Positions 31,289-52,005 of a stretch of DNA of 64,000 nucleotides are shown here, in pieces. The position numbers and the translations under genes are program-made. Origin of the DNA: Myxococcota bacterium (GTDB taxonomy: Bacteria; Myxococcota_A; Bradymonadia; UBA7976; UBA1532); NCBI GenBank assembly GCA_036337435.1, contig JAYZEG010000028.1, forward strand, positions 1 through 64,000, read 5' to 3'. The notes below the pieces were generated by a model. That model searched no databases. It saw nothing but the letters and a program-made list of their open reading frames with translations, and was not told where the DNA came from. The first letter of the stretch is position 1; every line of letters begins with the position of its first letter.

Positions 31289-31552
31289 GTGCTCACGCTC
31301 ACCAGAAAAGTCGGTGAATCTGTTTGTATTGGCGATGACATTAAAGTTGTTGTCAAAGAAGTGAAAGGCAAGCAGGTTCGACTCGGAATTATTGCACCGC
31401 GAGAAGTCTACGTCTGCAGAGAGGAACTCTACGAGAGAATCCATCGTGCAAACGTCGGCGCGGCCGATACGAATGTAAATATCCTCGATTCCATTAGCGG
31501 GTTGTTTTCAAATCCCAAGACGCCGGAGGGAGGTGAATCCGATGAAGATTGA
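31289..31552 (+). CDS. csrA: Carbon storage regulator
   Basis: [18 protein letters not shown]...QVRLGI.AP.EV.V.REELY; AGGAGG SD, GTG start. Confidence 0.96.
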
Positions 31553-32030
31553 AACCTCACGATTCGGCACGATAGAGGTGTCACCCGACCAAGTCTTTAC
31601 ATTCCCAATGGGATTGTTGGGCTTCGCTAAATACAAGGAATTCGTTGTTATCGACCATACGGAGGATAGTCCATTTAAATGGCTGCAGAGTGTGGAAGAA
31701 GGGTCTTTAGCCTTCATCATAACGGATCCCTTGTTTTTCTATAGCAATTACCAAATCAAGGTCAGGCGCAGCGAGCTGTCTATGCTCAACCCCATCAATG
31801 AAGATGATTTGGTCGTTTCAGTAATCATGACAATTCCTGAAAACCCTCAAGATATGACTGCAAACCTGCTTGCTCCGTTAATTTTTAACATGGGTAATCG
31901 AACGGGAATGCAGCATGTTCTGACCAATTCCAATTACTCGGTGAAGTTTTCTGTACTTAAAGAAAAACAGGCCAATCCAGCCCCTGTTCCTGTCGACGGA
32001 AAGCGGCCTAAGGCCATTTCCCTGAGTTGA
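31542..32030 (+). CDS. fliW: Flagellar assembly factor / CsrA antagonist
   Basis: [11 protein letters not shown]...FPMGLLGF...WLQS...DP..F...TANLLAP. Confidence 0.95.
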
Positions 32031-35000
32031 TGGTGGACTCATCGGAGACAAAGTCGGGAACTCCGCGCGCGAGCGCGGTTTTGCCCGGGACAGAGCAACT
32101 TATCGATGGTTGGCCTGCTGCCGAACCGTTCTTTCGTGGAATTGATCGCGCCGTCGATGCGCTTTCAGAGAACCAAACACGAGGGATCGCACAACTCGGG
32201 CGGCGAATTGGTCGGTTTATTCGGTTTAATCGGACTCGTCTTGCACGTTTGTTTGAGTCCTTGGATGACCGAGCGAGGACAGCATTTGCGCTGGTGCCCT
32301 ATTTACTGCATGTCAATGAACCCGACCTTCCGGGCTATGTTTCATCTGGTCGCCTCACATCCCATGGTGTGAGTCAATTTGAGTTTAATGAAACCATTCA
32401 GAGTGCCTTAATGTCGGTCACTCGCCGTAATTCAGTGCGTTCCCCGGCAACTGAGTTTCGACCCGTCATCAGGAGTATCTTCGCTGTAACTGACATTGGC
32501 ACACTCGCACAGCGGCCGGGTGACACGGTAACCCTCTTCTTGGTCGCGGACCTGAGGGGCATGGGCGAGCCACTCAGGCGGCAGCTGACCCGAAAATTGG
32601 AAGAAATTATTGCGTGGAGTTCGCAGCAAGGTCTCAATTTAGGGTTTGAGCTCATCGACCCAGCCTGGTCTAAGGAGGGGGATTTCGGCAATCTACGTGG
32701 GGAAAGAGCGATCGGTATGCTCTTACTCGAACGATTCTATCGAAACGCGATTTTCCTTGCGGGTGAAATTCCTGTTTTCTGGTGCACAACACCTGGTAGC
32801 GATTCGGACAAACACGAAAAAACTGCACGGTTGGCTGCACGGATGGACTTCGACGAAGCGATTTCCTTTGTCGACCTCGGTTTTGTTGAACTGCCCAAGG
32901 TTCGAGTTCGTCGCAGGGCAATGCTGGGTGTATTGAATCACCACCCAGTCTCCCCCCTCTGCACGATTCTTGAACTTGTTTTATTGCTTAACGGTGCGAA
33001 TGCATCGTCATTGCTATGTGATCATATGAAGAGTCGGATCTTTAAGGGCTCTGAAGCGGTTCACTTTATCGATCCCTACATTCTCTTGTTTGATGCAGCA
33101 TCTGTTGCCTTGGGTCATCATGGTGGTTGGCAGAGGCTCGATTTACTTCGGCGTCTTTTCATACTCAAGTCAGCACTTGTAAGCCGCCGATCTACCCGTG
33201 GACGCCGAGCCTTTATCAAGAAACTGCGGGACATGTCAGGGTACATCGTCAGATGGGGTTGGCAGAGGGAGGTCTTGCAGGACGCAGAACGCTTCCAGCG
33301 GAACAATCGGTCTGACTCAGACATCCTCGACAAATTGTTTCGGGAGCAAATTCTCGGGATGTATCGGGAACTGGCGGAGCTTGCAGCGAGTACCCCTGGA
33401 CGGTTTGATGATGAAGAGGTCGCACTTCTTGGCCGCCGACTCGTCGCCTGCTTCGGCCGTAACGGCGGCCAGGTTCCGCCGCGGTATACGTATCTTCTCC
33501 ACGAAAACCCGATGCTCGAAACATTTTTCGTTTTCGACGACGCGAATCCCGAAGCAAGGCGGCGTTGGGGCGTTCATAAAGAATTGGCGGGCCGAAGGCC
33601 TGTCGAGGGGGCCGAACCGGTATTTTCGGCAGATTCTTTGTCAGCTGTTTTAACTTGGGCTGCCGTCAATGTAGTGACGAGAAATCGCACCGAGGTCAAG
33701 ATGGTGAGCTCCGATTCTCTCGTTGGAACAGCCCTTTTAAAGGACGCTCTCAAAGAAGTTGAGACGGCGATTAAAGTTGTTGACCCGCTGACCTTGCCCT
33801 CCTTGCGTTTTTCCAAGCCACGTCGAATTGAACGGGCAATCTTATTGGCGAATTTTGAGCAAAAACGCACCGATGAGCAACAAATGGAGAGAGACCGTCG
33901 GCAGTATCTGCCGAGCAACTGGGATATACTCAACTACGGACGTGATAGAAATAGTCGAGTCCGGGATGTCTCGGTGATTACTCGAGATAGTTGGGATCAG
34001 GTTCAGTGCCGGCGTTCGAGGGGCAGAGATGCGGTTCGTCTCGCCATGAAATACGTCTTTCATGACCGAACGCCTGAGTCATTGCAAGATGCGCCACTGA
34101 CCGTGTTGGTGCCTGATGGTCGTACTCAGCGCGCCGTTCATGACAGACTTCAGCAGTTAATTAATTCCGTCGAGGACGTTGCCTCGACGCCTATCAAAAC
34201 CGGAAGCTTCAGAGCGTTTGCGTATGAAGTGGGCGGTCGTTTCCAAGTAGTGCGACGCGATAACGACCGAATTCGTCTCTTCAACACGCGGTCTCTGGAT
34301 GGGGTGGTGCGACTCCTAAGCCCGTCTGGACTGGGGAATGCGGGTATTCTTTATGACGGATTATCTCCAGCTCTTTCTGATTTGAGAGCGATTACGAAGC
34401 GCATGGAAACGGATTCATCGCTGCAGTTTGCGCTCGGCTGGAGGACGTCGCAGGGCCTTGCTCAGATTACTTTACTCGATCAAACAGGCCGTATTTACCG
34501 CAGGAAAGTCAATCCTAAGCAGCTTGACGACGCTCTTGTAAGAATTGCCCGGCGCATCATTCATAGCATCAGGCATCGGGTTCGAGATATGCGAACCTTG
34601 AGGCGAGTCGTCCGTGTTTTCGAACTGCGAGATGGTGAGACGCAAGGAGGTCAATCTCACCTCTACGAAGATACGGTTCGAATTCTACGCTTACTCGGCG
34701 AGCCCAGACCATCTCACCCTGAAATATTTTTGCGGGGTGATCTTGTTGATGGACGTGACGGGATTTTCTTCGAGTACGATGATCAGACCTTTCATCCTCG
34801 GGAACAGGGGCGAACGTTCATCATGAATCTGGTGAAGAAGTTATTATCCGATAAATCAAAGTACAGTCAGGTCAATTTATTCATCGAAGCCTCGACCGTC
34901 GATTTTCCGGATAGCGATAATTCACGCCACATTACAAGCGTCGTTCGGCAGCTGAGATTGATCGACTTGTACGAACGACTTTTGGCCCGGGCACTGCTAT

Positions 35001-35062
35001 CCCTGAGGGGACGGCCGAGCGTTCCCTTGAGCAGCACCTCAAGTTACAGGAGCCAAGAATGA
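32027..35062 (+). CDS. Class I (CyaA-type) adenylate cyclase homologue lacking catalytic residues
   Basis: LVPYLLHVNEPDLPGYV, LLLERFYRNAIFLAG and DPY match class I ACs; the GS...SDxD motif is replaced by TD...DTVT. Confidence 0.85.
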   Translation: MMVDSSETKSGTPRASAVLPGTEQLIDGWPAAEPFFRGIDRAVDALSENQTRGIAQLGRRIGRFIRFNRTRLARLFESLDDRARTAFALVPYLLHVNEPDLPGYVSSGRLTSHGVSQFEFNETIQSALMSVTRRNSVRSPATEFRPVIRSIFAVTDIGTLAQRPGDTVTLFLVADLRGMGEPLRRQLTRKLEEIIAWSSQQGLNLGFELIDPAWSKEGDFGNLRGERAIGMLLLERFYRNAIFLAGEIPVFWCTTPGSDSDKHEKTARLAARMDFDEAISFVDLGFVELPKVRVRRRAMLGVLNHHPVSPLCTILELVLLLNGANASSLLCDHMKSRIFKGSEAVHFIDPYILLFDAASVALGHHGGWQRLDLLRRLFILKSALVSRRSTRGRRAFIKKLRDMSGYIVRWGWQREVLQDAERFQRNNRSDSDILDKLFREQILGMYRELAELAASTPGRFDDEEVALLGRRLVACFGRNGGQVPPRYTYLLHENPMLETFFVFDDANPEARRRWGVHKELAGRRPVEGAEPVFSADSLSAVLTWAAVNVVTRNRTEVKMVSSDSLVGTALLKDALKEVETAIKVVDPLTLPSLRFSKPRRIERAILLANFEQKRTDEQQMERDRRQYLPSNWDILNYGRDRNSRVRDVSVITRDSWDQVQCRRSRGRDAVRLAMKYVFHDRTPESLQDAPLTVLVPDGRTQRAVHDRLQQLINSVEDVASTPIKTGSFRAFAYEVGGRFQVVRRDNDRIRLFNTRSLDGVVRLLSPSGLGNAGILYDGLSPALSDLRAITKRMETDSSLQFALGWRTSQGLAQITLLDQTGRIYRRKVNPKQLDDALVRIARRIIHSIRHRVRDMRTLRRVVRVFELRDGETQGGQSHLYEDTVRILRLLGEPRPSHPEIFLRGDLVDGRDGIFFEYDDQTFHPREQGRTFIMNLVKKLLSDKSKYSQVNLFIEASTVDFPDSDNSRHITSVVRQLRLIDLYERLLARALLSLRGRPSVPLSSTSSYRSQE

Positions 35063-36958: not shown

Positions 36959-39214
36959 CTACTTCTTCTTCGTACTCCCGCTGATGGCTTCCATCTGCTG
37001 GGTTATATAGCTGCCCAATGCGTCTAATTTACCCATGGTCACTTCCATATTGGTAAATTGTCGGCGCAACCGTTCCTCTTGCATTGACATTCGGCGCTGC
37101 TGTTTAAGAATTTCACCTTCTAGGCTTTCGATCCGGGTCGTGACACCTTCTGCCCGGCTCTTGAGAACTCCACGAAAACCGATCAACCCATTGATGATGC
37201 CCGGGAATTTCTCGGCAAGACCATCCACAATCCGGACTTTACCCATTGGGCCGGATGTATCATCGGGGATTGTGACCTCGATCCCCTCGACGCTAAACCC
37301 CATTCCACCCTTGAGCCGGTTACCTTCAACTATGGTCGCTGGTACACCCCCGATCAATCCTTCAAGATCGGTTCCAATCGCTTCTTGTTCTGCGTTTCCA
37401 ATTCGGCTTGTGCCGGCGGCTGCAGCAAGGTTAGATTGCACCGCTATCTTGTAGTCGTCACCGTACTCTGTGCTGCGGAAAGTAATCGCACCTGTTGCAT
37501 CCAGAAATGCCGTCATGTCGAGAGAACTTTGCTCGAAACGGTCATTGAACTTGGTGATTTGCTGTTCTGGGGTGTCCCCGGCGAGCAATGAGACACTGAA
37601 TTCGAAGGGGTTACCATCGGTTTGTGCACGGCGATTGAAGGTCAACGAGATCTCTTCATCGGCAGCCAGCACCTCCGCGGGTGCTGCAGCTGTCAGTTGC
37701 GCGCGGGTTCGTGCCTGAGTGACGTTCACATCGTAGGTGCCAGGCTTTGTTGACGAAGTTCTCTTGGTGAACTTGAAGTCGCCAGACATTCGCTCGCCAA
37801 ATCGAGTCAAGACCCGTTCGACGGCCGTGGGGTCGTCCCTCATCAACGTACTGAGCTTCATCGGATTAAAGCTAACAATCCCCGTTTTCTCGTTCGAGTC
37901 TATGCCTAGCTCAGAAAGTGAGCTCACTTCAGAGCTTCCGAGGCCATCCATACGAGCAGAGATAATTCGCTTTATGTCACGGTCGACTTGACGCGCCGCT
38001 GAATCGCCATTGAGGGGTGGTGCTAGGCCGCCTTTAGACGGATCAAAAGCAAAATGTTGTCGGAGAAAACCGACAACACCATTGTAGGCACCGATAAACG
38101 CGGTGAGCGTTTCCTCAACGCTACCGGAATCCTTTTCAACAGTTATATTGACGGTTTCATTCGGGGAGGCTGACGCAAGGTCAAATGTCAGCCCCTCAAA
38201 GACATCATTCACCACGTTGGAGTTTTTTCTCACAGTGATTCCATTGACTTCAATGATGGAATCTTGCGGTGTTCTTAATTCAGGATTGAACACGTCTATC
38301 GTGAACGTATCGCCTTCCCTGAGTGTGCCATCGTCTTCAAAATTTATGGTCACGCCATCTGCCAAGGCGATAGGGCCTCCACTTGTCACGTCAAACCCAA
38401 GTCCACCATTGTCGTCAAACGTCAAACCACCGTCGGTTGATAACCGATATTTGGCGGTTCCATCGGCTAATCCCTCTGTGATCACCTCCACGATGAAGCT
38501 GGTGTTTGCTGTGCCTGTATACGTACCAGCGGAGGTCACAGAACCTTCGTAATCGCCCGCGTTATCTTTATCGGCAACGGCTTCTTCGATCTGTGTATTG
38601 CCGAAATCGAGGGTGGTATCGTTTTGGGTGATGATGATTGTACCGGCTTCACCCTCTTTGGTCGCTGTCAGAACAAGGCGTTGGGAATTCGTACTCGTGC
38701 CATCGTCTACAATGGTTGCTGTCACACCTTTTTTGGCATCATTTATCGCATTGGCAAAACTTTGAAGTGATGTTGATGGTCCGACATCCAGCTCGACCTC
38801 GCTGCCTGTCGTGCCGAGTTTGAAGGCGAACACCCCATCTTCAGCGGCAACGCCCGTCCCGGTTTTGTCGACGAAACCTTGAGCTGCAATACGGTGCGAC
38901 GTCGCGATCTGCTTTACTTTGACCGCATACGTACCAGGCTCAACGTCGCCGGAACGACTTCTGGCCGAGAGGACAGCCGTATTGCTTGAATTAACTTGAA
39001 GCTCCCCAAAAATATTATCATCACTGAATTTCGACGCTGCTCTCTTGAGCCCGTCTAATCGGCCAGTCAGGTCATCATAGGCCGCTTTCTTTTGTTCTTC
39101 TAAAGCGATTCGTCTTTGAATCTGGAATATGCGCTGCTCTTCCAGCGCCATGAGCTGCGCAATAATGCTATCGGAATCAATTCCACTGGCGAGGCCGCCA
39201 ACTGCAATTCCCAT
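36959..39214 (-). CDS. fliD: Flagellar filament cap protein
   Basis: GLASGID...I.QLM..E; N-terminal HAP2 region; LRRQFTNME C-terminus; 751 aa. Confidence 0.95.
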   Translation of the reverse strand: MGIAVGGLASGIDSDSIIAQLMALEEQRIFQIQRRIALEEQKKAAYDDLTGRLDGLKRAASKFSDDNIFGELQVNSSNTAVLSARSRSGDVEPGTYAVKVKQIATSHRIAAQGFVDKTGTGVAAEDGVFAFKLGTTGSEVELDVGPSTSLQSFANAINDAKKGVTATIVDDGTSTNSQRLVLTATKEGEAGTIIITQNDTTLDFGNTQIEEAVADKDNAGDYEGSVTSAGTYTGTANTSFIVEVITEGLADGTAKYRLSTDGGLTFDDNGGLGFDVTSGGPIALADGVTINFEDDGTLREGDTFTIDVFNPELRTPQDSIIEVNGITVRKNSNVVNDVFEGLTFDLASASPNETVNITVEKDSGSVEETLTAFIGAYNGVVGFLRQHFAFDPSKGGLAPPLNGDSAARQVDRDIKRIISARMDGLGSSEVSSLSELGIDSNEKTGIVSFNPMKLSTLMRDDPTAVERVLTRFGERMSGDFKFTKRTSSTKPGTYDVNVTQARTRAQLTAAAPAEVLAADEEISLTFNRRAQTDGNPFEFSVSLLAGDTPEQQITKFNDRFEQSSLDMTAFLDATGAITFRSTEYGDDYKIAVQSNLAAAAGTSRIGNAEQEAIGTDLEGLIGGVPATIVEGNRLKGGMGFSVEGIEVTIPDDTSGPMGKVRIVDGLAEKFPGIINGLIGFRGVLKSRAEGVTTRIESLEGEILKQQRRMSMQEERLRRQFTNMEVTMGKLDALGSYITQQMEAISGSTKKK

Positions 39215-39288
39215 TTTTCAACCCTCCTAAATCTTCAATGACCATGATTCGCTTTCGCTAAATAAGTCATTTTTCACCGATCTACACA

Positions 39289-39304
39289 TGCACACATTGT
39301 GCCA
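39289..39304 (-). promoter_or_regulatory. Sigma54 promoter of fliD
   Basis: TGGCACAATGTGTGCA on the minus strand, GG-N10-GC, same -12 GTGCA as the flgF promoter. Confidence 0.75.
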
Positions 39305-39314
39305 TTTTTCGCGT

Positions 39315-39350
39315 AAAAAGGTGGCGGAACGGGGAAACCCCGTTCCGCCA
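39315..39350 (-). terminator. Intrinsic terminator
   Basis: Perfect 13-bp stem TGGCGGAACGGGG/CCCCGTTCCGCCA followed by CCTTTTT on the minus strand. Confidence 0.88.
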
Positions 39351-39880
39351 ATTGCGACGATCAGTTTACCAAGTCTACGCACCCCCCGCTCGGGCGTCAC
39401 GTAGTCGTTTTATTTGGACCGCTCCTTAGTCCATAATATTCGCATAGTGCTCGAATGCGACCACTACTTTTCAGCCAGGGCGGAAGGCCACCAATAAGTG
39501 ACTCTCACGGACCCAATCGTCAGTCTTAGCGCCACACTAGACTGACATAGCCGCGCGGAGCGACGTCTCGACTGAAGGGAACGCTGGGCCTGGATGGCGT
39601 ATGCACCCCGGCCTGGTTTCCTCCTGGTAACGAAGTATGAGGAGGGCACACTTCATTACTCATTCGCCAAGCAAGCCAGCGACATCTCCTGAAGAGGTTC
39701 GCTGCGCGCGGCCGCAGGGTAGAAACCCATGCTGCTGCTCCGCAGTTTGTGCTCCAAGTGAAGAGTCACCGACTGATCGAGTTTTAACAGGCCAGCCAAA
39801 ACTCGCGTCCTGATTTGGCAAACCAATCATCACGATGGGTTCCTATTGAGGATGGAGCCCTCTATAGGAACCCATTATGC
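39351..39880 (-). ncRNA. Candidate large structured non-coding RNA or structured 3' UTR of flagellin 1
   Basis: Nested long-range helices and many local hairpins; G-U pairs favour the minus strand; ends at a terminator. Confidence 0.6.
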
Positions 39881-39882
39881 TG

Positions 39883-41325
39883 CTAGCCTAACAAGGACAG
39901 AGCGATGTTTGGCTGCTGGTTCGCCTGTGCCAAGACACTGACACCAGCCTGCTGCACAATCTTGTTCTTCGAGAACACCGCTGTCTCTGAGGCAAAATCC
40001 GCATCTTGGATTCGGCTTCGGGACGCACTCAAGTTCTCAGAACTAACCTCTAAGTTTCTGACGGTCGATGCGAGTCGGTTTTGAACCGCACCCAGCTCAC
40101 TTCGGAACGACGACACTTGACTGATTGCAATATCGAGTGTCGATATCGCATCATTAGCACCTTCTCGTGATGTCACGTCGAGATTACTCACCGAGAACTC
40201 GTCGTTTACACCGAACAAAGACGCTCCAGCACCACCGACATCACCGAGCTTACTGATCGCCGCTCCAGTGAGATCGAATTGTTGCTCCGATTGAAGTGTC
40301 AATCGACCACCAGTAACAGTTGTTCCTGCAGCACCAAGACCCACTCGCGAACCATTTCCAGACACGGTCAGCTCGATGTTGCGTCCATCTTCTGCGGTCA
40401 AAACCATCCTGTTGTCTACGTCGAGACTGGCAACAACACCTGTCTCGTCACTGACAGCATTGATTTGGTTGACCAATGTGTCATCAGCGTCGTTGTCCTG
40501 AACAGCAAAGCCCGTCAGAACAGTCCCATTTATGGAGATGTTGTTTGTTGAGTCCATCGTCACAGCGGTGATGTCTGATTCAGCAACAATCTCTGTCTTC
40601 TCCACGATGGCGGTAACACCGGTGAATTCAGACGAATCATTAATCGCAGCCGCTTTTGAAATTGCGGATGCTGCGTTAAGTGTCGTCGACAAAGAGTCAT
40701 CAGCGGCTACAGTCGAACGGACTGTAACACCTCTAATGACAACGTCTCCATCGGACAGTGCATCTCCAGCTCCACCCACTGTAATGTCGGTTGAACTTTC
40801 GTACTTGGCCTGACGACCAAGAGACGTTGATCGAGCATCTTTGACAGAAATCGACAAATTTTCTCGGAAGTTTGCACCAATGTGAAATTTCGCACCGGTG
40901 AAGCTGCCGTCGAGCAATGTCTGATTATTGAATGTCGTCTTTGTCGCAATGCGGTCAAGCTCGTCTACCAGAGCAGTAACTTCTTCCTGGATAGACTCTC
41001 TGTCTGCATCTGTGTTGGTATCATTGGCCGATTGAACGGACAGCTCGCGCATTCTTTGCAGAATTGCACCGCTCTCTTGCAAACCACCTTCCGCGGTTTG
41101 TGCGAGCGAAACGCCGTCGTTTGTATTTCGAATGGCTTGGTTGAGACCACGGATTTGTGTACTGAAGCGCTCCGAAATGGCAAGCCCTGCAGCATCATCT
41201 TTAGCGCTGTTGATCCGAAGACCAGAAGACAATCGCTGAAAGGATTGTCCCAAAGAGCGCGTAGTTTCATTCATATTACGACGCGCATTAATAGACGCGA
41301 CGTTAGTATTAACGTAAAGACCCAT
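39883..41325 (-). CDS. fliC: Flagellin 1 (480 aa)
   Basis: VNTN...RLSSGLRINSAKDDAAGLAISE; LGAVQNRL...SRIQDADFA.E...QAG.SVLAQANQ. Confidence 0.98.
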   Translation of the reverse strand: MGLYVNTNVASINARRNMNETTRSLGQSFQRLSSGLRINSAKDDAAGLAISERFSTQIRGLNQAIRNTNDGVSLAQTAEGGLQESGAILQRMRELSVQSANDTNTDADRESIQEEVTALVDELDRIATKTTFNNQTLLDGSFTGAKFHIGANFRENLSISVKDARSTSLGRQAKYESSTDITVGGAGDALSDGDVVIRGVTVRSTVAADDSLSTTLNAASAISKAAAINDSSEFTGVTAIVEKTEIVAESDITAVTMDSTNNISINGTVLTGFAVQDNDADDTLVNQINAVSDETGVVASLDVDNRMVLTAEDGRNIELTVSGNGSRVGLGAAGTTVTGGRLTLQSEQQFDLTGAAISKLGDVGGAGASLFGVNDEFSVSNLDVTSREGANDAISTLDIAISQVSSFRSELGAVQNRLASTVRNLEVSSENLSASRSRIQDADFASETAVFSKNKIVQQAGVSVLAQANQQPNIALSLLG

Positions 41326-41329
41326 CTTT

Positions 41330-41369
41330 ATTCACTCCATGAATCGTCAGCTAAGTAGCTATCCGTAGC
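41330..41369 (-). promoter_or_regulatory. Paired CsrA-binding hairpins in the flagellin 1 leader
   Basis: GCUA-CGGA-UAGC and AUUCA-UGGAG-UGAAU, the latter containing the SD. Confidence 0.75.
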
Positions 41370-41661
41370 CACTCACGTCCACAGCCAGAAATTGACTGAG
41401 TTCGAACTTGTACGCAGACCCATCTTTGCGCATCACCAAGTTGCTGGATTGGTCGATTGGATCACCATCTTGGTTGATCCTAAATCATTAAAATGTTTCG
41501 CCGACTACCCATCGGCCCCAAAAGTCATTTTGTCGTTCATCTCGTCGCATATAAACCTACCCCTAGGCCATATTACTCGGGATGAAGCACCTCCTTTCAT
41601 CAGTCCGTCCTAAACGAACAGTCTTAAAGTCCGTGCCGGTAATTCCGGCGCGTCACCTACG

Positions 41662-41688
41662 ACATCGGACGGAAAACTACATACTTGA
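41662..41688 (-). promoter_or_regulatory. Sigma28 promoter of flagellin 1
   Basis: TCAA-N15-TCCGATGT, with an A/T-tract region upstream. Confidence 0.85.
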
Positions 41689-41969
41689 GAGAAAAATAAA
41701 GGAATAGTGTATTTTTTATTGTGCTGGGGCTGTTTTTTTAAACTCTTTTTGTTGATTTTTTGAGTTTATATTCAACAAATACAGCTATTTAGAAAAAAAT
41801 CTTTTAGTAAGACTGTTTTTTTAAATATCTGTAAAAAAATGAGTGGGCGCGCAATCCGATTGCGCAATACACCTCAATTGCCAGCAGGGAATTGGTTGCG
41901 ATCTCGAGATTGCTCAGTTGAGTCTGTGACGCCGACTGACCAGGATCTGAATCTTGCAGACGTTGAGAA

Positions 41970-42005
41970 TAATCCTCCGCTATCCAGCTGGACAGCGGAG
42001 GATTA
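41970..42005 (-). terminator. Stem-loop after flaG
   Basis: TAATCCTCCGCT/AGCGGAGGATTA inverted repeat; weak U-tail. Confidence 0.6.
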
Positions 42006-42010
42006 AGGAC

Positions 42011-42475
42011 TTAACCGTCTAAGTTGAGTAGGGTACCTTTTGGCAAATCGCCGTCCTCGCTATAACCCTTCAGGCGGTCTACCATTTCCAAGAATTCCAT
42101 GGGAGGTATTTGACGGGTCACCTCTTTTCCATTTCTTTCCTCAGTGATGGTCATGGTCACTCGCCCAGAACCGGAATCAAATCCAAAATGAACGGATCGA
42201 TTCTTAGCTCTAAGGACTGACTCAGCAATGGCGTTTGCCTGTTCTACCTCTCGCGTCACGAGAGCTGGATCGACTGACGACATTGCAACCGCCTCAAGTC
42301 CACTCTCCGGACCTGGGGTTCCAAGGGTTTGAGCAACTTGCTCTCCTTTTGGTGCTTCTACTTTACTTACGGCAGCGGTTGTCTCTTGCGATTGACCGCG
42401 GCGTCCGGGTGACTCTCCGACCGATGACGGACGGATCGGTTGACCCGCATACGCCTGATAAACATTAATGGCCAT
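42011..42475 (-). CDS. flaG: Flagellar protein FlaG
   Basis: SVHFGFD..SGRV.M.I....GKEVTRQIPP.EFL...G.LLN; directly after a flagellin. Confidence 0.88.
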   Translation of the reverse strand: MAINVYQAYAGQPIRPSSVGESPGRRGQSQETTAAVSKVEAPKGEQVAQTLGTPGPESGLEAVAMSSVDPALVTREVEQANAIAESVLRAKNRSVHFGFDSGSGRVTMTITEERNGKEVTRQIPPMEFLEMVDRLKGYSEDGDLPKGTLLNLDG

Positions 42476-43985: not shown

Positions 43986-44034
43986 TTTGTTCGCTCCTTG
44001 AAACAAATGCGGAATAGCTTTCCTTAGCCATTCC
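43986..44034 (-). promoter_or_regulatory. Paired CsrA-binding hairpins in the flagellin 2 leader
   Basis: GGAAUGGCU-AAGGAA-AGCUAUUCC and UUUGUUU-CAAGGAGC-GAACAAA (SD). Confidence 0.75.
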
Positions 44035-44304
44035 CGAAAACACCACCCATGGTGTTTTCAACCCCCAAAGGCAGACCCTCTGCCAGTTCGGGGAGCGTTA
44101 TTAACGAATCCTTACCCCTAAGGAATCGCTTGGGTGCCGACTTTCGTCGGCCTATGTAGTTTTTCTACCGTACCGTTGTTTAGACACTAACTGCCGACAC
44201 TACCCCTGCGTCCGTCCAGCGAAACAACCTAACCTCCAATCAAGCCCATGTTAGGGCCAATGGTTTGAAGTATGTTTGGAAACAGTTGCTTGCCTCCACC
44301 CACG

Positions 44305-44331
44305 ACATCGGACATCCCCGACAAAACTTGA
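44305..44331 (-). promoter_or_regulatory. Sigma28 promoter of flagellin 2
   Basis: TCAA-N15-TCCGATGT. Confidence 0.85.
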
Positions 44332-44499
44332 AAAAAAAATGATATTTTTTCGAAGTTTTTTTGTTTTTTGTTTAATTACAGGCGTTTGCGGTTTTCATAT
44401 GGGCGGTTTATCTGGCTTCATGCGTCTGCGATACGCGCAGAATTTAAAAAATTAATGATAGGTTGTCGGGAGGGGGGGCTGAAGAGCCAAAAGAGGTCG

Positions 44500-44549
44500 A
44501 AGGACCCGAGATAATATGCGCAATTATCTCGGATCCCCCTATTTTTTTT
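44500..44549. terminator. Strong hairpin or terminator after flagellin 3
   Basis: AAGGACCCGAGATAAT/ATTATCTCGGATCCCC stem; T-tract on the plus side. Confidence 0.65.
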
Positions 44550-44664
44550 GCAGTCTTGGTCACCCACTCTAGCGCGTGAGACCGACTACCTTAGTTGAGG
44601 TGCCTCGTCACTCAGCGACCCGCCGCGATTCGGATCGATGCTGAAAGACGAGATACCTTATTTA

Positions 44665-46265: not shown

Positions 46266-47258
46266 TCATGAATCTACCTCCACCGTTGGTGGCCCATCAC
46301 GGGCAGTTCTAATTGCAGGACCGCGTGTCACCATCGTCTTGGCAACACCCTTGGATCCTGGATTAAGGCGTCTCACAACCTTTTGGGTTGCTCTGCGAGG
46401 CACCTTAGGCCTTATCATCTGCATCCGCGGTCTGGCGTCGCCTGACTCACTGGATGTACGTCTGTTTAAATTGACCGCGACACGCTGTGTTTCATCATCC
46501 CTCTGGATGTAGAGAATGGCTGATTCAGTCCAACATCTTAGCTGTCCATATCGGTCACTCTCTTTTTCCACTGACACCTTCGGTGGTCTCAGAATGCGCG
46601 GTCTCAAAATTCTCGTTTCTCGGTTCTCATTTTCGGGTTTGCTCACTGAGTCACTGTCGCAAACAAACTCCGTTGCGCAGCAACCGTACTTCCAACGTAA
46701 CGACTTATCATCGGTCGTCAGGCTAGCAATCGGCTCTGGCGGAGACCCCCTCGTCAGTCTGATACTTTTCATGCGGTGAGCATTTGCTTGCTCCGCATAA
46801 CCAGCAGACGAAATCGTTTGATTACACTTTGGTGGACCGGCTCCCGAACCACCCGTCGAGCAGTAATCGTTTTCTTCCCTTGCTGTATCCATGTCTTCCC
46901 GACGCTGGCGCCGCCAATGTCGACCTTCATGGTCATTAAATATCCGATGCAATCGGTCTGTATGACGTGAGCGCATCGAACCACGTTGTTTTTGGCCGAG
47001 TCGCAAGGTCCGTCTGGGCCTCGACTCGGAACGAACCAGGCGTCTCGCCCGCTCCGCTGAATCGGCCTCGGCTTGCGCGACGACCCCAAAGAATTCACCT
47101 AACTCCGTATCGCCATAGGCTTGGACAAGGTTTGCATCTAAGGTCACTGCAATCTCATGCAGCTTTCGCCACCCTGTTGGGACTCCGGGCTTTTCCCGCC
47201 TTCGGGGTGCCTTCGCAGGCCGAAGCATTTTTTGCGGTTGTCTAGCTAAGTTATTCAT
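46266..47258 (-). CDS. ORFan, Arg-rich, likely disordered (330 aa)
   Basis: Open for 330 codons; starts 8 nt after the flagellin 4 stop; no recognisable domain. Confidence 0.55.
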   Translation of the reverse strand: MNNLARQPQKMLRPAKAPRRREKPGVPTGWRKLHEIAVTLDANLVQAYGDTELGEFFGVVAQAEADSAERARRLVRSESRPRRTLRLGQKQRGSMRSRHTDRLHRIFNDHEGRHWRRQRREDMDTAREENDYCSTGGSGAGPPKCNQTISSAGYAEQANAHRMKSIRLTRGSPPEPIASLTTDDKSLRWKYGCCATEFVCDSDSVSKPENENRETRILRPRILRPPKVSVEKESDRYGQLRCWTESAILYIQRDDETQRVAVNLNRRTSSESGDARPRMQMIRPKVPRRATQKVVRRLNPGSKGVAKTMVTRGPAIRTARDGPPTVEVDS

Positions 47259-49412: not shown

Positions 49413-49847
49413 TCATCCCGATGGTTCAAAACCGACCTCCACTTCCGCCCATCCCCCCTGGGACGGGCTGCTGACGATGGTGTCAATCCATCGACAATCA
49501 ATCCTTGTCATTCCCGGCAGGTGCGGTCTTTGCCTGACCCGCTGTGTCCTGCCATCGGTACCCGGTGTGAGTCGTTCCCAACCCACAGAGTAAAAATCAT
49601 TTTGTCGCACTAACCCGGACTCGCTAGGCGGTCTATGCACGCCCGTCAGAGTCAATGGTTTATTCTTTCGATAGCGTTCGAAAAACCGCGTCACTTGAAC
49701 TATTCCGTTTGCTACTTCCAGAGCTTTGACACCGGAGGAAAACGCTTCCCAAGGGTGGCCATCGGCTCGTCGTCCTGGCCGCTTCACGACCCTTCCTTTG
49801 CTTACGACTGTCTTCACGGCGCAGAACTCCTGTTGACAGAGTTCCAT
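49413..49847 (-). CDS. Possible ORFan (144 aa)
   Basis: Overlaps the end of the 640-aa ORF; no recognisable domain. Confidence 0.3.
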   Translation of the reverse strand: MELCQQEFCAVKTVVSKGRVVKRPGRRADGHPWEAFSSGVKALEVANGIVQVTRFFERYRKNKPLTLTGVHRPPSESGLVRQNDFYSVGWERLTPGTDGRTQRVRQRPHLPGMTRIDCRWIDTIVSSPSQGGWAEVEVGFEPSG

Positions 49848-51736
49848 TCGCCTCGGCGACGCGTTCCGTGCAGATAATCTGGGCTGACTGTGCCTCTGTT
49901 CCGTGACAGACGGCAGTCGTTGTCAGTGACTGGTCTAGACGGACCTGTCTTCGTCCATCTACTCACCGAGCAAACCCTGACCTGTCGACCACTTTGCATC
50001 ACGTAGTGGCCATCGCCTGCGTCGTCTTGCAAGCAACCGACAGTGGGTTTCGACCGCTGACCTACACATGCCCCGTTTCTATATTCCATGGGCACGGCGG
50101 GGCGTGTAGAGGCGTGCCATTGTCTGAGCGTTACCTCGAGTTTGTCACCCTTGTTGAGCAGACAATGGTCCCATTCAGTCAGGGGCAGCCAGATCGAGTC
50201 CATAAGACCGGGCTCTGCAACAGTGCGACCTGAAAGCATGTGAGCTCCGATTAGCCTAAAAGACGTCCAACGATGTTGCGCGTTGTACATGCCTTTATCC
50301 CATCGTATTGGTGTCAAAGGACCGACGGGTGTGCGCAGTATGGAGTCCCTGTTTTTGTCAATTGGTCCATTGGTTGGTGCATCATCACCATCAGTGGACG
50401 TCTTGTTTAGGCGACCGAGCCAGAACCGTGCTTTGGAGGGGGACTCATCCCCGAGGCTCCTCGGTCGTCTGCTCCTACGACAATTGATGCATCCAGGACA
50501 TGCTCCGGCCTGCGCAGTCGAACTGAGAGTCGATATGGGGTCTCTTATGGACCCGCCGACGACGGTTTTGCTCAAATCTATATCTCGCCAACGGTCGTGC
50601 TGCAGTTGCCTTTCAGGTTTGTGTTTTGCAGGCGGCAAAAAGCCATCCATTTTTATACAGTTTCGATCATCGAATCGTTTTTTCCGTATGGGCTTGGTCG
50701 TACCGCGCAATGGTCGTCCAAGCGATGAACAATCGTTCCTTAGATTCGCTCCTGGGTGTTCGTTTATACCGCTCGAGCTCACTCCTGCTTTAAACCTGCC
50801 CCGATAAACGTCAAACGGGGTCTTAAACCGTCTAAATTGAGATGGGAGCCGGCTCATATGGAGTGGTCCTGGTTTGAAGTCTTCCGACAAACGTCCCTTG
50901 GTCAATGGTTTTACTGGAGGGGGCTCGTTTCCCAGCGTCCCTGCAGGCGTCCACAAGTGCAGGTTTTCCGCACTCTTTGCTGTGACATGACCAGCGCGAA
51001 TGATGGCTCCATCTCTTTGATCTTGCTCCGGGAGTCCGTTTGTAGCTCGGTTACCAGAGCCTGTTTTCCCTGCCGTGAGCAACCGAGGTTGTCGTTCGCA
51101 TCCTTGTCTGAAGTTCGCTAGGGGTTGACTGCTCGCACAATCGCCGAGACCAATTGCGTTGGCCGCGACCCCAAATACATCTGTCACTGCTCCCTGGTTA
51201 TCCTTGTTGTTGAAGACATCAAGGCACTTGCCAGTACGAGAATCAGAGTTTTCGATACAGAGTTGGCTTCCATAGAAACCCTGCTCGGGTATGGTCGACT
51301 CGCGGAGCTCCGTTCGGTCTAACTCCTTGACAGAGGGTTGGACCGAGTTCGTCAAAACTGGTGGTCCATAAACGCCCTCTCGTTTTCTCCAAAGCCTGAG
51401 CTTATTACCTGCTGAGTACGGTGATACCTCGATATTGAAAAGTGAATTGGACAGTTGGTTCTCATCTTTGTTGTGAGCCGATAATCGTGTCCGCTTCAAG
51501 TATGTGTAACCAGCAACAGCTTTGCCGGTAAGCTCCGCTGGGCGATCGGCACGATGACTGCTGCTGAATGCCAACCTTCCTGTGATCGAGTGTTCCGATG
51601 ACACGAAGTGAGCAGTCGAGTAAAGTGGCTCCTCGATGCTTAAATCAAGGGCCTTTAACTCAAACTTGAGCTGGCTTGATTTTTCCTGTTGTCGTTTCAT
51701 CTTATCTAAACACTCTTCTATTGTTCGGTCACTCAT
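49814..51736 (-). CDS. ORFan (640 aa)
   Basis: 640 codons without a stop; same strand as the flagellins; no recognisable domain. Confidence 0.6.
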   Translation of the reverse strand: MSDRTIEECLDKMKRQQEKSSQLKFELKALDLSIEEPLYSTAHFVSSEHSITGRLAFSSSHRADRPAELTGKAVAGYTYLKRTRLSAHNKDENQLSNSLFNIEVSPYSAGNKLRLWRKREGVYGPPVLTNSVQPSVKELDRTELRESTIPEQGFYGSQLCIENSDSRTGKCLDVFNNKDNQGAVTDVFGVAANAIGLGDCASSQPLANFRQGCERQPRLLTAGKTGSGNRATNGLPEQDQRDGAIIRAGHVTAKSAENLHLWTPAGTLGNEPPPVKPLTKGRLSEDFKPGPLHMSRLPSQFRRFKTPFDVYRGRFKAGVSSSGINEHPGANLRNDCSSLGRPLRGTTKPIRKKRFDDRNCIKMDGFLPPAKHKPERQLQHDRWRDIDLSKTVVGGSIRDPISTLSSTAQAGACPGCINCRRSRRPRSLGDESPSKARFWLGRLNKTSTDGDDAPTNGPIDKNRDSILRTPVGPLTPIRWDKGMYNAQHRWTSFRLIGAHMLSGRTVAEPGLMDSIWLPLTEWDHCLLNKGDKLEVTLRQWHASTRPAVPMEYRNGACVGQRSKPTVGCLQDDAGDGHYVMQSGRQVRVCSVSRWTKTGPSRPVTDNDCRLSRNRGTVSPDYLHGTRRRGEWNSVNRSSAP

Positions 51737-52005
51737 CCGAGCGACCCCGTCTATACAAAGTTGTTCTTACGTTTGGACCGTTGTTTCCGACTCTTCGACC
51801 TGCCCATGGCGTGCGATAGCGAGCGTTTTTTGACTCGCTATCCGCCACAAACTCCCAGGCGTTTCTATCTTTCTCCATCACAGAAGGAGGAGGGGAGTCG
51901 CTGCCTGGGCGTTTTTTCAGTCTCGTGTCTTCAAAGTGGTCATCCTTAACCGACCTACTCGGGACCGTCTCCACCCGCCCGGGACAGAGAGCAGTCCGTT
52001 ATAGG

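Follow-up and report, generated by a model that had tools for sequence, protein, structure and literature searches.

The window, that is, the whole 64,000-nucleotide stretch of DNA that was analysed, holds a flagellar gene cluster. On the minus strand, Pfam matches and the list of open reading frames place, in the 5' to 3' direction, a flagellin gene (44006-42543), flaG (42475-42011), a 685-nt spacer, a further flagellin gene, referred to here as flagellin B (39883..41325; 480 aa; Pfam Flagellin_N, 1.9e-45, and Flagellin_C, 6.4e-25), and, after a gap, fliD, which codes for the filament cap (36959..39214; 751 aa; FliD_C, 8.5e-38, and FliD_N, 2.6e-20). The gap between the flagellin B stop (39883) and the fliD start (39214) is 668 nt long and harbours a structured element, the 3' part of the flagellin B mRNA. 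The cluster also contains flgF, flgG, flgA, flgH, flgI, flgJ, flgN, flgK, flgL, fliS and three more flagellin genes; an RNA tail of this kind is absent from the four other flagellin genes of the window. On the plus strand, 8 kb from the element, are csrA (31289-31552) and fliW (31533-32030). These two genes overlap, and immediately after them comes a gene for a class-I adenylate cyclase of 1011 aa (31289-35062 for the run of genes, plus strand; Pfam Adenylate_cycl, 3.8e-40), an unusual neighbour within a flagellar cluster. ORFs of 330, 144, 640 and 81 aa between flagellin paralogues (46266-47258 and 49413-51974, minus strand) have no Pfam match at E<=1e-5.

We compared the gene order at 39883-42475 with that at loci L017-L029 of the same family, leaving out L019, which is on a short contig. 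In these 12 genomes, which are of other genera, flagellin and fliD are separated only by a FlaG-like ORF; the likeness of these ORFs (about 150-175 aa) to FlaG was judged by eye against the Pfam-confirmed FlaG of the window. In the genus that bears the element, flaG and fliD are about 2.8 kb apart; the interval is filled by the 685-nt spacer, by flagellin B and by the RNA element, and looks as if it had been inserted or duplicated as a unit. Another spacer, of 658 nt, between two other flagellin genes (44007-44664, minus strand), also folds more stably than expected (z -7.2, 20 shuffles). Instead of one closed fold, it forms a series of strong local hairpins that surround an A/T-rich tract and a sigma-28-like motif (44329-44306).

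A BLAST search of 61 genomes found the element in three, G000 among them; the copies in G002 and G001 are 93% and 77% identical, and all three genomes belong to the same genus. The fourth genus member, G003, gave no match, which is uninformative because its fliD is cut by a contig end. Three further copies, with 99.5%, 94.5% and 77% identity, were found by a 21-mer scan of metagenome contigs. The neighbours, flagellin, element, terminator and fliD, are the same in every copy for which enough flank was read. The six natural variants form two clades, one with G000, MG34, MG32 and G002, the other with G001 and MG33. Covariance models of the 3' and central domains gave no credible homologue beyond the genus in 28 family, 113 class and 151 phylum genomes. 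Model R1, the automatic structure of which is partly wrong since it missed helix P9 (see below), matched three of the 28 family genomes; in the class it matched the same three and, weakly (21-28 bits), three G+C-rich sequences that we judged to be false, as whole hairpins were deleted in them and one lay apparently inside an ORF. Model R2, covering the central domain, matched only G000 when 19 candidates were scored in each phylum genome. The longest sequence shared by both clades, the 29-mer GGGUCCGUGAGAGUCACUUAUUGGUGGCC, is exact in G000, G001 and G002 and was found in no other of 401 phylum genomes at up to three mismatches. Neither phage and plasmid collections nor viral contigs, the latter probed with an 18-mer and a 19-mer, matched the element. 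The known range thus comprises one genus (three of 401 phylum genomes), variants from three metagenome contigs and a number of marine RNA libraries; so narrow a distribution restricts the comparative evidence as well as the generality of the finding.

The minus strand of 39882-39315 (568 nt) folds with -269.6 kcal/mol, as compared to -201.2 +/- 6.9 kcal/mol for dinucleotide shuffles (z -9.9), and none of 100 shuffles was equally stable. The plus strand of the same 568 nt gave -229.4 kcal/mol (z -6.9). The difference of 40 kcal/mol between the strands, together with the many invariant G-U pairs of the consensus that are valid on the minus strand only, identifies minus as the RNA strand. A consensus computed with RNAalifold has 188 pairs in 17 helices and forms one multi-domain fold (39833-39354). 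The diverged copy of G001, when folded alone, returned to the same architecture (z -6.8).

The layout is modular: a hairpin, H0, is followed by one unpaired base, a fold closed by helix P1, a 3-nt linker and a terminator. H0 (39835..39875, minus; -25.8 kcal/mol, z -5.8) comes directly after the flagellin B stop, where a hairpin had been predicted, and has no U-tract; in the other clade its place is taken by a hairpin that differs in sequence (-22.4 kcal/mol). The core of the RNA, 480 nt (39354..39833, minus), is closed end to end by the 21 bp of P1 (39833-39812 with 39375-39354; 96.8% of cells paired). Inside P1 are the hairpin P2 (39778..39805), of variable sequence, and the long-range helix P3, of 15 bp (39777-39762 with 39505-39490), which is 100% paired and in which 13 pairs are invariant. 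The central domain, a rod of 165 nt made of P5, P6 and P7 with internal loops (39549..39713; helices 8-12 of the consensus), is the best conserved part, with a mean column identity of 91% over the six variants. It includes the P7 hairpin (39627..39659), whose 13-bp stem presents a 7-nt loop, CCCUCCU (39646-39640), that resembles an anti-Shine-Dalgarno sequence and is identical in all six variants. A 22-nt block that is identical between the clades, GGAGGAAACCAGGCCGGGGUGC (39603..39624), is mostly unpaired and starts with a Shine-Dalgarno-like sequence; the motif GGAGGAAAC is single-stranded and lies only a few bases after P7. The P8 hairpin (39518..39547, 13 bp) is 100% paired. The invariant block GGGUCCGUGAGAGUCACUUAUUGGUGGCC (39486..39514) provides the 3' strands of P4 and P3 and the start of P9. 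The 3' domain (39381..39488; helices 14-16 of the consensus) comprises P9 (39488-39474 with 39395-39381), the P10 hairpin (39467-39444) and the P11 hairpin (39436-39410), the loop of which, AAGGAGC (39427-39421), is invariant. All these features are on the minus strand, as is the intrinsic terminator (39315..39350; -27.1 kcal/mol, z -6.7), a perfect, G+C-rich hairpin of 13 bp (39350-39322), with 10 G-C pairs and the tail CCUUUUU, that qualifies as rho-independent. The terminator, already recognized as perfect in the original prediction, is found in both clades, with two compensatory pairs.

The original prediction had drawn this fold from one sequence. Of its local stems, the comparative consensus retains those at 39627-39659 (13 bp, with two G-U pairs), 39519-39546, 39440-39460 and 39415-39433. 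Its three long-range helices fared differently. The pairing of 39762-39769 with 39498-39505 is part of the invariant P3 and is 100% paired in all six variants. In this genome the remaining two are likewise perfectly complementary, but they break in the second clade: 39772-39779/39358-39365 is 81% paired over the variants and competes with P1 and P3, and 39737-39743/39555-39561 is 90.5% paired and competes with P5. The true closing helix is P1. A last predicted stem, 39375-39404, is compatible with the data but is an alternative to the consensus P9, and the data favour neither. Both pairings, which are mutually exclusive, use the G-run GCGGGGGG, and the sole substitutions there (UG to CA in clade 2) fit both. 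A conformational switch between the 39375-39404 hairpin and P9 is possible.

Of the 1118 cells that the 188 consensus pairs give over the six variants, 95.9% are paired, as compared to 38-43% when the partners are slid by 1-3 columns, and 28 pairs show changes on both sides, as compared to 2-5 in the slid controls. Neither value was reached in any of 500 shuffles. The double changes cluster in P1 (8 of 21 pairs), P2 (6 of 11, some of them private to variant MG32), P7 (7 of 13) and P8 (4 of 13). Some of the double changes arose separately within clade 1, at pairs 105/130 and 110/125 in MG32 and at pairs 261/275 and 264/272 in G002. With no more than two deep clades to compare, independent compensatory events are few, and the core helices, in which there is no variation, are neither supported nor contradicted by covariation. 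The peripheral helices P1, P2, P7 and P8 hold their pairing while their sequence drifts; in the core helices, in the junctions and in two hairpin loops the sequence is invariant.

This invariance was set against the divergence of the surrounding DNA. Fourfold-degenerate sites are saturated between G000 and G001, with 39% identity in flagellin B and FliD alike; the flagellin B protein is 91% identical across the two clades. The core of the element is 73-74% identical between the same two genomes, with identical runs of 29, 22, 17, 17, 15 and 14 nt, and 151 nt of the element, unpaired junctions and loops included, fall within runs of at least 12 nt that are identical across the clades. As controls, the adjoining fliD leader is 50% identical, which is the level of shuffled sequence with the same aligner (51%), and the flagellin B 5'UTR is 63% identical between the clades. 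In addition, a metatranscriptome contig from a strain variant (39527-40098) has all of its 11 differences in the flagellin ORF and none in 356 nt of the element. These sequence comparisons support the view that the element is under purifying selection well above that on neighbouring non-coding DNA.

The conservation is not that of a protein-coding gene. In line with the absence of a credible ORF from the original prediction, the 668-nt gap has no ORF common to relatives: the substitutions in the element show no codon phase (40/36/51, p 0.24), no ORF of the element is common to both clades, and the indels are 2, 2, 1, 3, 3, 1, 1, 1, 2 and 1 nt long. A FlaG pseudogene was likewise rejected, as tblastn with 13 FlaG proteins found no relic in the element (best E 0.13). 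In the 4.38-Mb assembly there is one full-length match, the remaining ones being the element's own hairpin arms or chance matches (<=36 nt, E>=0.6), and this single genomic copy rules out a repeat, a MITE, a REP-type sequence or a mobile element. A search of the whole window against Rfam 15 returned no hit at the gathering thresholds and, at E<=10, three noise matches of 12-16 bits against thresholds of 46-90; the G001 copy matched only terminator-like parts of sRNA models (E>=0.06). OLE, ROOL, GOLLD, HEARO, raiA, IMES, 6S, RNase P, tmRNA, SRP, group I/II introns and riboswitches are all below the gathering thresholds, which agrees with the failure of the original prediction to see hallmarks of tmRNA, RNase P, SRP, 6S or group I/II introns.

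Promoter-like sequences flank the flagellin B transcription unit on either side. Upstream of flagellin B, a pattern scan found AAGT-N14-TCCGATG (41663..41686, minus), which resembles the sigma-28 consensus and which we take to be a putative sigma-28-type promoter. Five sites of this type are present in the window, as compared to 1.44 expected, and four of them precede late flagellar genes; the motif recurs before two other flagellin genes and the flgN region. Metatranscriptome contigs of three runs stop at 41639-41646, 15-25 nt downstream of the motif, and on the basis of these contig ends the flagellin B 5'UTR would have about 320 nt (41326..41650, minus); its folding is unexceptional (z -1.8). 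The leader has blocks that are conserved between the clades. Its Shine-Dalgarno sequence (GGAG) is looped out by a small hairpin, AUUCA-UGGAG-UGAAU, which does not differ between the clades and is presumably a CsrA-type site; this would fit the csrA-fliW pair of the cluster. No sigma-70-like or sigma-28-like site was seen in pattern scans between the flagellin B stop and the fold (39834-39950). Just past the terminator and before fliD is a second promoter-like element, TGGCAC-N5-GTGCA (39288..39306, minus), presumably of sigma-54 type, to judge by the consensus. It is kept in the four variants that could be read, in G001 as TGGCAT-N5-ATGCA, and the remaining leader is at random identity. The fliD motif, in the window and at loci L009, L010 and L032, and the motif of the flagellin genes suggest a two-tier flagellar hierarchy in this lineage, sigma-54 and then sigma-28.

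A word search found part of 39100-41500 in 20 runs; 19 of these, from 13 studies, are RNA libraries, namely marine or seawater metatranscriptomes. In all four runs examined, from four studies, near-identical contigs cover the element (39355-40167, with three differences; 39357-39976, with none; 39527-40098; and 39354-39582 plus 39606-39888, with none), although such contigs carry no information on RNA strand, ends or abundance. In three of the four runs they bridge the stop codon into the flagellin ORF, although this is no proof of one continuous transcript. In three studies, contigs end at the base of P1 (39354-39357), immediately ahead of the terminator hairpin. Two of these ends are without loose letters and one abuts letters that we assume to be sequencing adapter. 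The common end hints weakly at a defined 3' end or at processing, since the same picture would result if priming occurred in the linker, ahead of a very stable hairpin. Over the terminator, the fliD leader and fliD, contig cover in the four runs is low or absent; this is not usable as evidence for termination. Similarly, the element contigs have 2-5 times the word depth of contigs from the central flagellin ORF, a contrast that strain variation in the middle of flagellin could explain and that is not usable as evidence for processing or abundance. Taken together, the contigs that bridge the stop, the lack of a promoter-like site before P1, and the terminator and separate fliD promoter after the fold mean that the element is best regarded as the 3' portion of the flagellin B transcript, and they lend support to the predicted co-transcription with flagellin.

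We conclude that the segment 39833-39354 (minus strand) is likely to be a functional, independently folding structured RNA of about 480 nt that serves as the tail of the flagellin B message, of which it forms nearly all of the 3'UTR. Its excess stability, compensatory changes, selection, lack of a coding signal or an Rfam family, and presence in RNA libraries bear out the original prediction of an undescribed large non-coding RNA on the minus strand. The unit would start at the sigma-28-type promoter near 41690-41660 and run through the leader, the flagellin ORF, H0, the P1-closed fold and the linker to the terminator, with fliD following under its own sigma-54-type promoter.

What the RNA does is a more tentative matter. 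Possibly, it is a regulatory platform of the late flagellar programme that acts through Shine-Dalgarno and anti-Shine-Dalgarno motifs. The RNA would be made one-for-one with the late flagellin message, and its exposed, invariant motifs, the anti-Shine-Dalgarno loop CCCUCCU, the Shine-Dalgarno-like GGAGGAAAC and AAGGAGC, may be the contacts for a specific partner. This partner might be the Shine-Dalgarno region of fliD, AGGAGG(G), which could form 6-7 bp with the P7 loop. The loop is complementary to the fliD Shine-Dalgarno sequence in all variants, and both are conserved; the complementarity stops at the Shine-Dalgarno sequence itself, the flanks differing between variants, and any strong Shine-Dalgarno sequence would match a loop of this type. 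Instead, the P7 loop could pair inside the RNA, with GGAGG or AAGGAG. An H-type pseudoknot of the loop with the GGAGG 4-6 nt past the stem was ruled out by reasoning on geometry, and an antiterminator pairing of the element with the terminator was rejected, as only 5-6 bp could be found by eye. Pairing between the 5'UTR and the 3'UTR found no support: the matches conserved between them do not rise above about 25 chance-level matches of 8-10 nt per genome, the two shared runs being invariant sequence, and duplex folding over the whole length was no better than for shuffles.

An alternative candidate partner would be one CsrA dimer. CsrA classically binds GGA presented in a hairpin loop. The 480 nt contain eight GGA motifs, three of them invariant and unpaired, as compared to 9.3 +/- 2.6 motifs in 2000 shuffles. 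A CsrA sponge of the CsrB/RsmZ type was rejected, since GGA is not enriched and at most one or two CsrA dimers could bind. It also seems conceivable, if doubtful, that the RNA acts in trans as a member of a new class of large ornate RNAs for the control of flagellar assembly. Made with the late flagellin message and released at P1, it would then be a checkpoint molecule that masks the Shine-Dalgarno sequences of fliD or of other flagellar genes through CCCUCCU, or that captures CsrA or another regulator, and it might form an RNA-protein or an RNA-only assembly, like OLE, ROOL and GOLLD. With its 21 bp, P1 is reminiscent of a processing stalk, which makes release as a separate stable RNA possible.

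In combination, H0, P1 and the terminator would protect the message against 3' exonucleases as well, and the tail could be a stabiliser and nothing else, one that guards a highly expressed flagellin message from 3'-to-5' decay and has no specific partner. The place of the element between stop codon and terminator, the stacking of three stable hairpins or helices at the 3' end, and a flagellin B that is highly conserved and found in many metatranscriptomes all suit this explanation, which we nevertheless regard as unlikely. Hairpins that stabilise tolerate drift, whereas the long runs identical between the clades have persisted here despite saturated synonymous sites, and the other flagellin genes of the window do without such a tail. 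As a plain stabiliser needs no invariant bases, some 150 of them, in its junctions and loops, a specific partner is likely. An improbable explanation, in our view, is that of a free-standing ornate RNA in the manner of OLE, ROOL or GOLLD, hitch-hiking on the flagellin B transcript, cut out at P1 and with an RNP or RNA-only role unrelated to the flagellin mRNA. Its size, multi-domain fold and invariant core would fit, P1 is stalk-like, contigs of three studies end at the P1 base, and a run of just 11 million letters held enough of the RNA for assembly. Against this, contigs continue into the flagellin ORF in three of four runs, their common end may be technical, and Rfam holds no match to any such family.

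The conservation could also be at the level of DNA. Sigma-54 promoters use upstream activator sites, and the element is 50-530 bp upstream of the conserved sigma-54-type promoter, where an activator (enhancer) region for fliD, or some other protein-binding DNA, might be expected. We hold this to be very improbable as the explanation of the element: compensatory changes preserve its base pairs, its invariant G-U pairs exist on the minus strand only and the strands differ by 40 kcal/mol in stability, the region is present in RNA libraries, and 480 nt far exceed what an activator site needs. A short protein-binding site in the DNA inside the element is possible. The reading that we prefer is still that of a structured RNA tail of the flagellin B message.

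The element shares features with several known systems. OLE lies within a protein-coding operon. Like OLE, ROOL and GOLLD, the element has several hundred nucleotides, a multi-domain fold, an invariant core and covarying peripheral helices, and is non-coding; in contrast to them, it has no sequence or structure match in Rfam 15, its host lineage and its context, a flagellin 3'UTR, are different, and its range, one genus, is far narrower. OLE is reported to be highly expressed (PMC3413148), and OLE, ROOL and GOLLD are all reported to form homo-oligomers (PMC12286853).

A regulatory 3'UTR with an anti-Shine-Dalgarno motif occurs in the icaR mRNA of Staphylococcus aureus. As in icaR, a C-rich motif of this kind, CCCUCCU, is found in a hairpin loop of the 3'UTR, here invariant on a covarying stem. 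Unlike in icaR, the Shine-Dalgarno sequence of the same message (GGAG) offers only about 4 bp and that of the next gene, fliD, is the better match, with 6-7 bp; moreover, the element is about 10 times larger than such a motif needs, and we found no conserved 5'-3' UTR pairing. A partner switch between CsrA, FliW and flagellin is known from Bacillus and Campylobacter, and here too csrA and fliW are in the same flagellar cluster. As in CsrB and RsmZ, a hairpin loop (AAGGAGC) displays GGA, and there is also a GGAGGA in single-stranded sequence; both motifs are invariant. The 21-bp end-to-end helix encloses its domain as the processing stalks of the rRNA type do, its sequence drifting while the pairing is kept. 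In comparison to the typical small RNAs derived from 3'UTRs, the element is much larger. Among the papers listed by full-text literature searches, none dealt with a large RNA in a flagellin 3'UTR.

The element is thus a large structured bacterial RNA that is embedded as a flagellin 3'UTR and lies outside every Rfam family. To our knowledge, very few bacterial RNAs of such size and conservation have been described, and most of them have no settled function. The comparison with the adjoining leaders indicates that long structured 3'UTRs of bacteria can face stronger selection than the leaders next to them. The clear context of this RNA, with a sigma-28-type flagellin gene, a sigma-54-type fliD, CsrA and FliW, and its presence in marine metatranscriptomes of several independent studies make it a large structured RNA whose part in a well-understood pathway, the flagellar gene hierarchy and the control of flagellin translation, would be directly testable.
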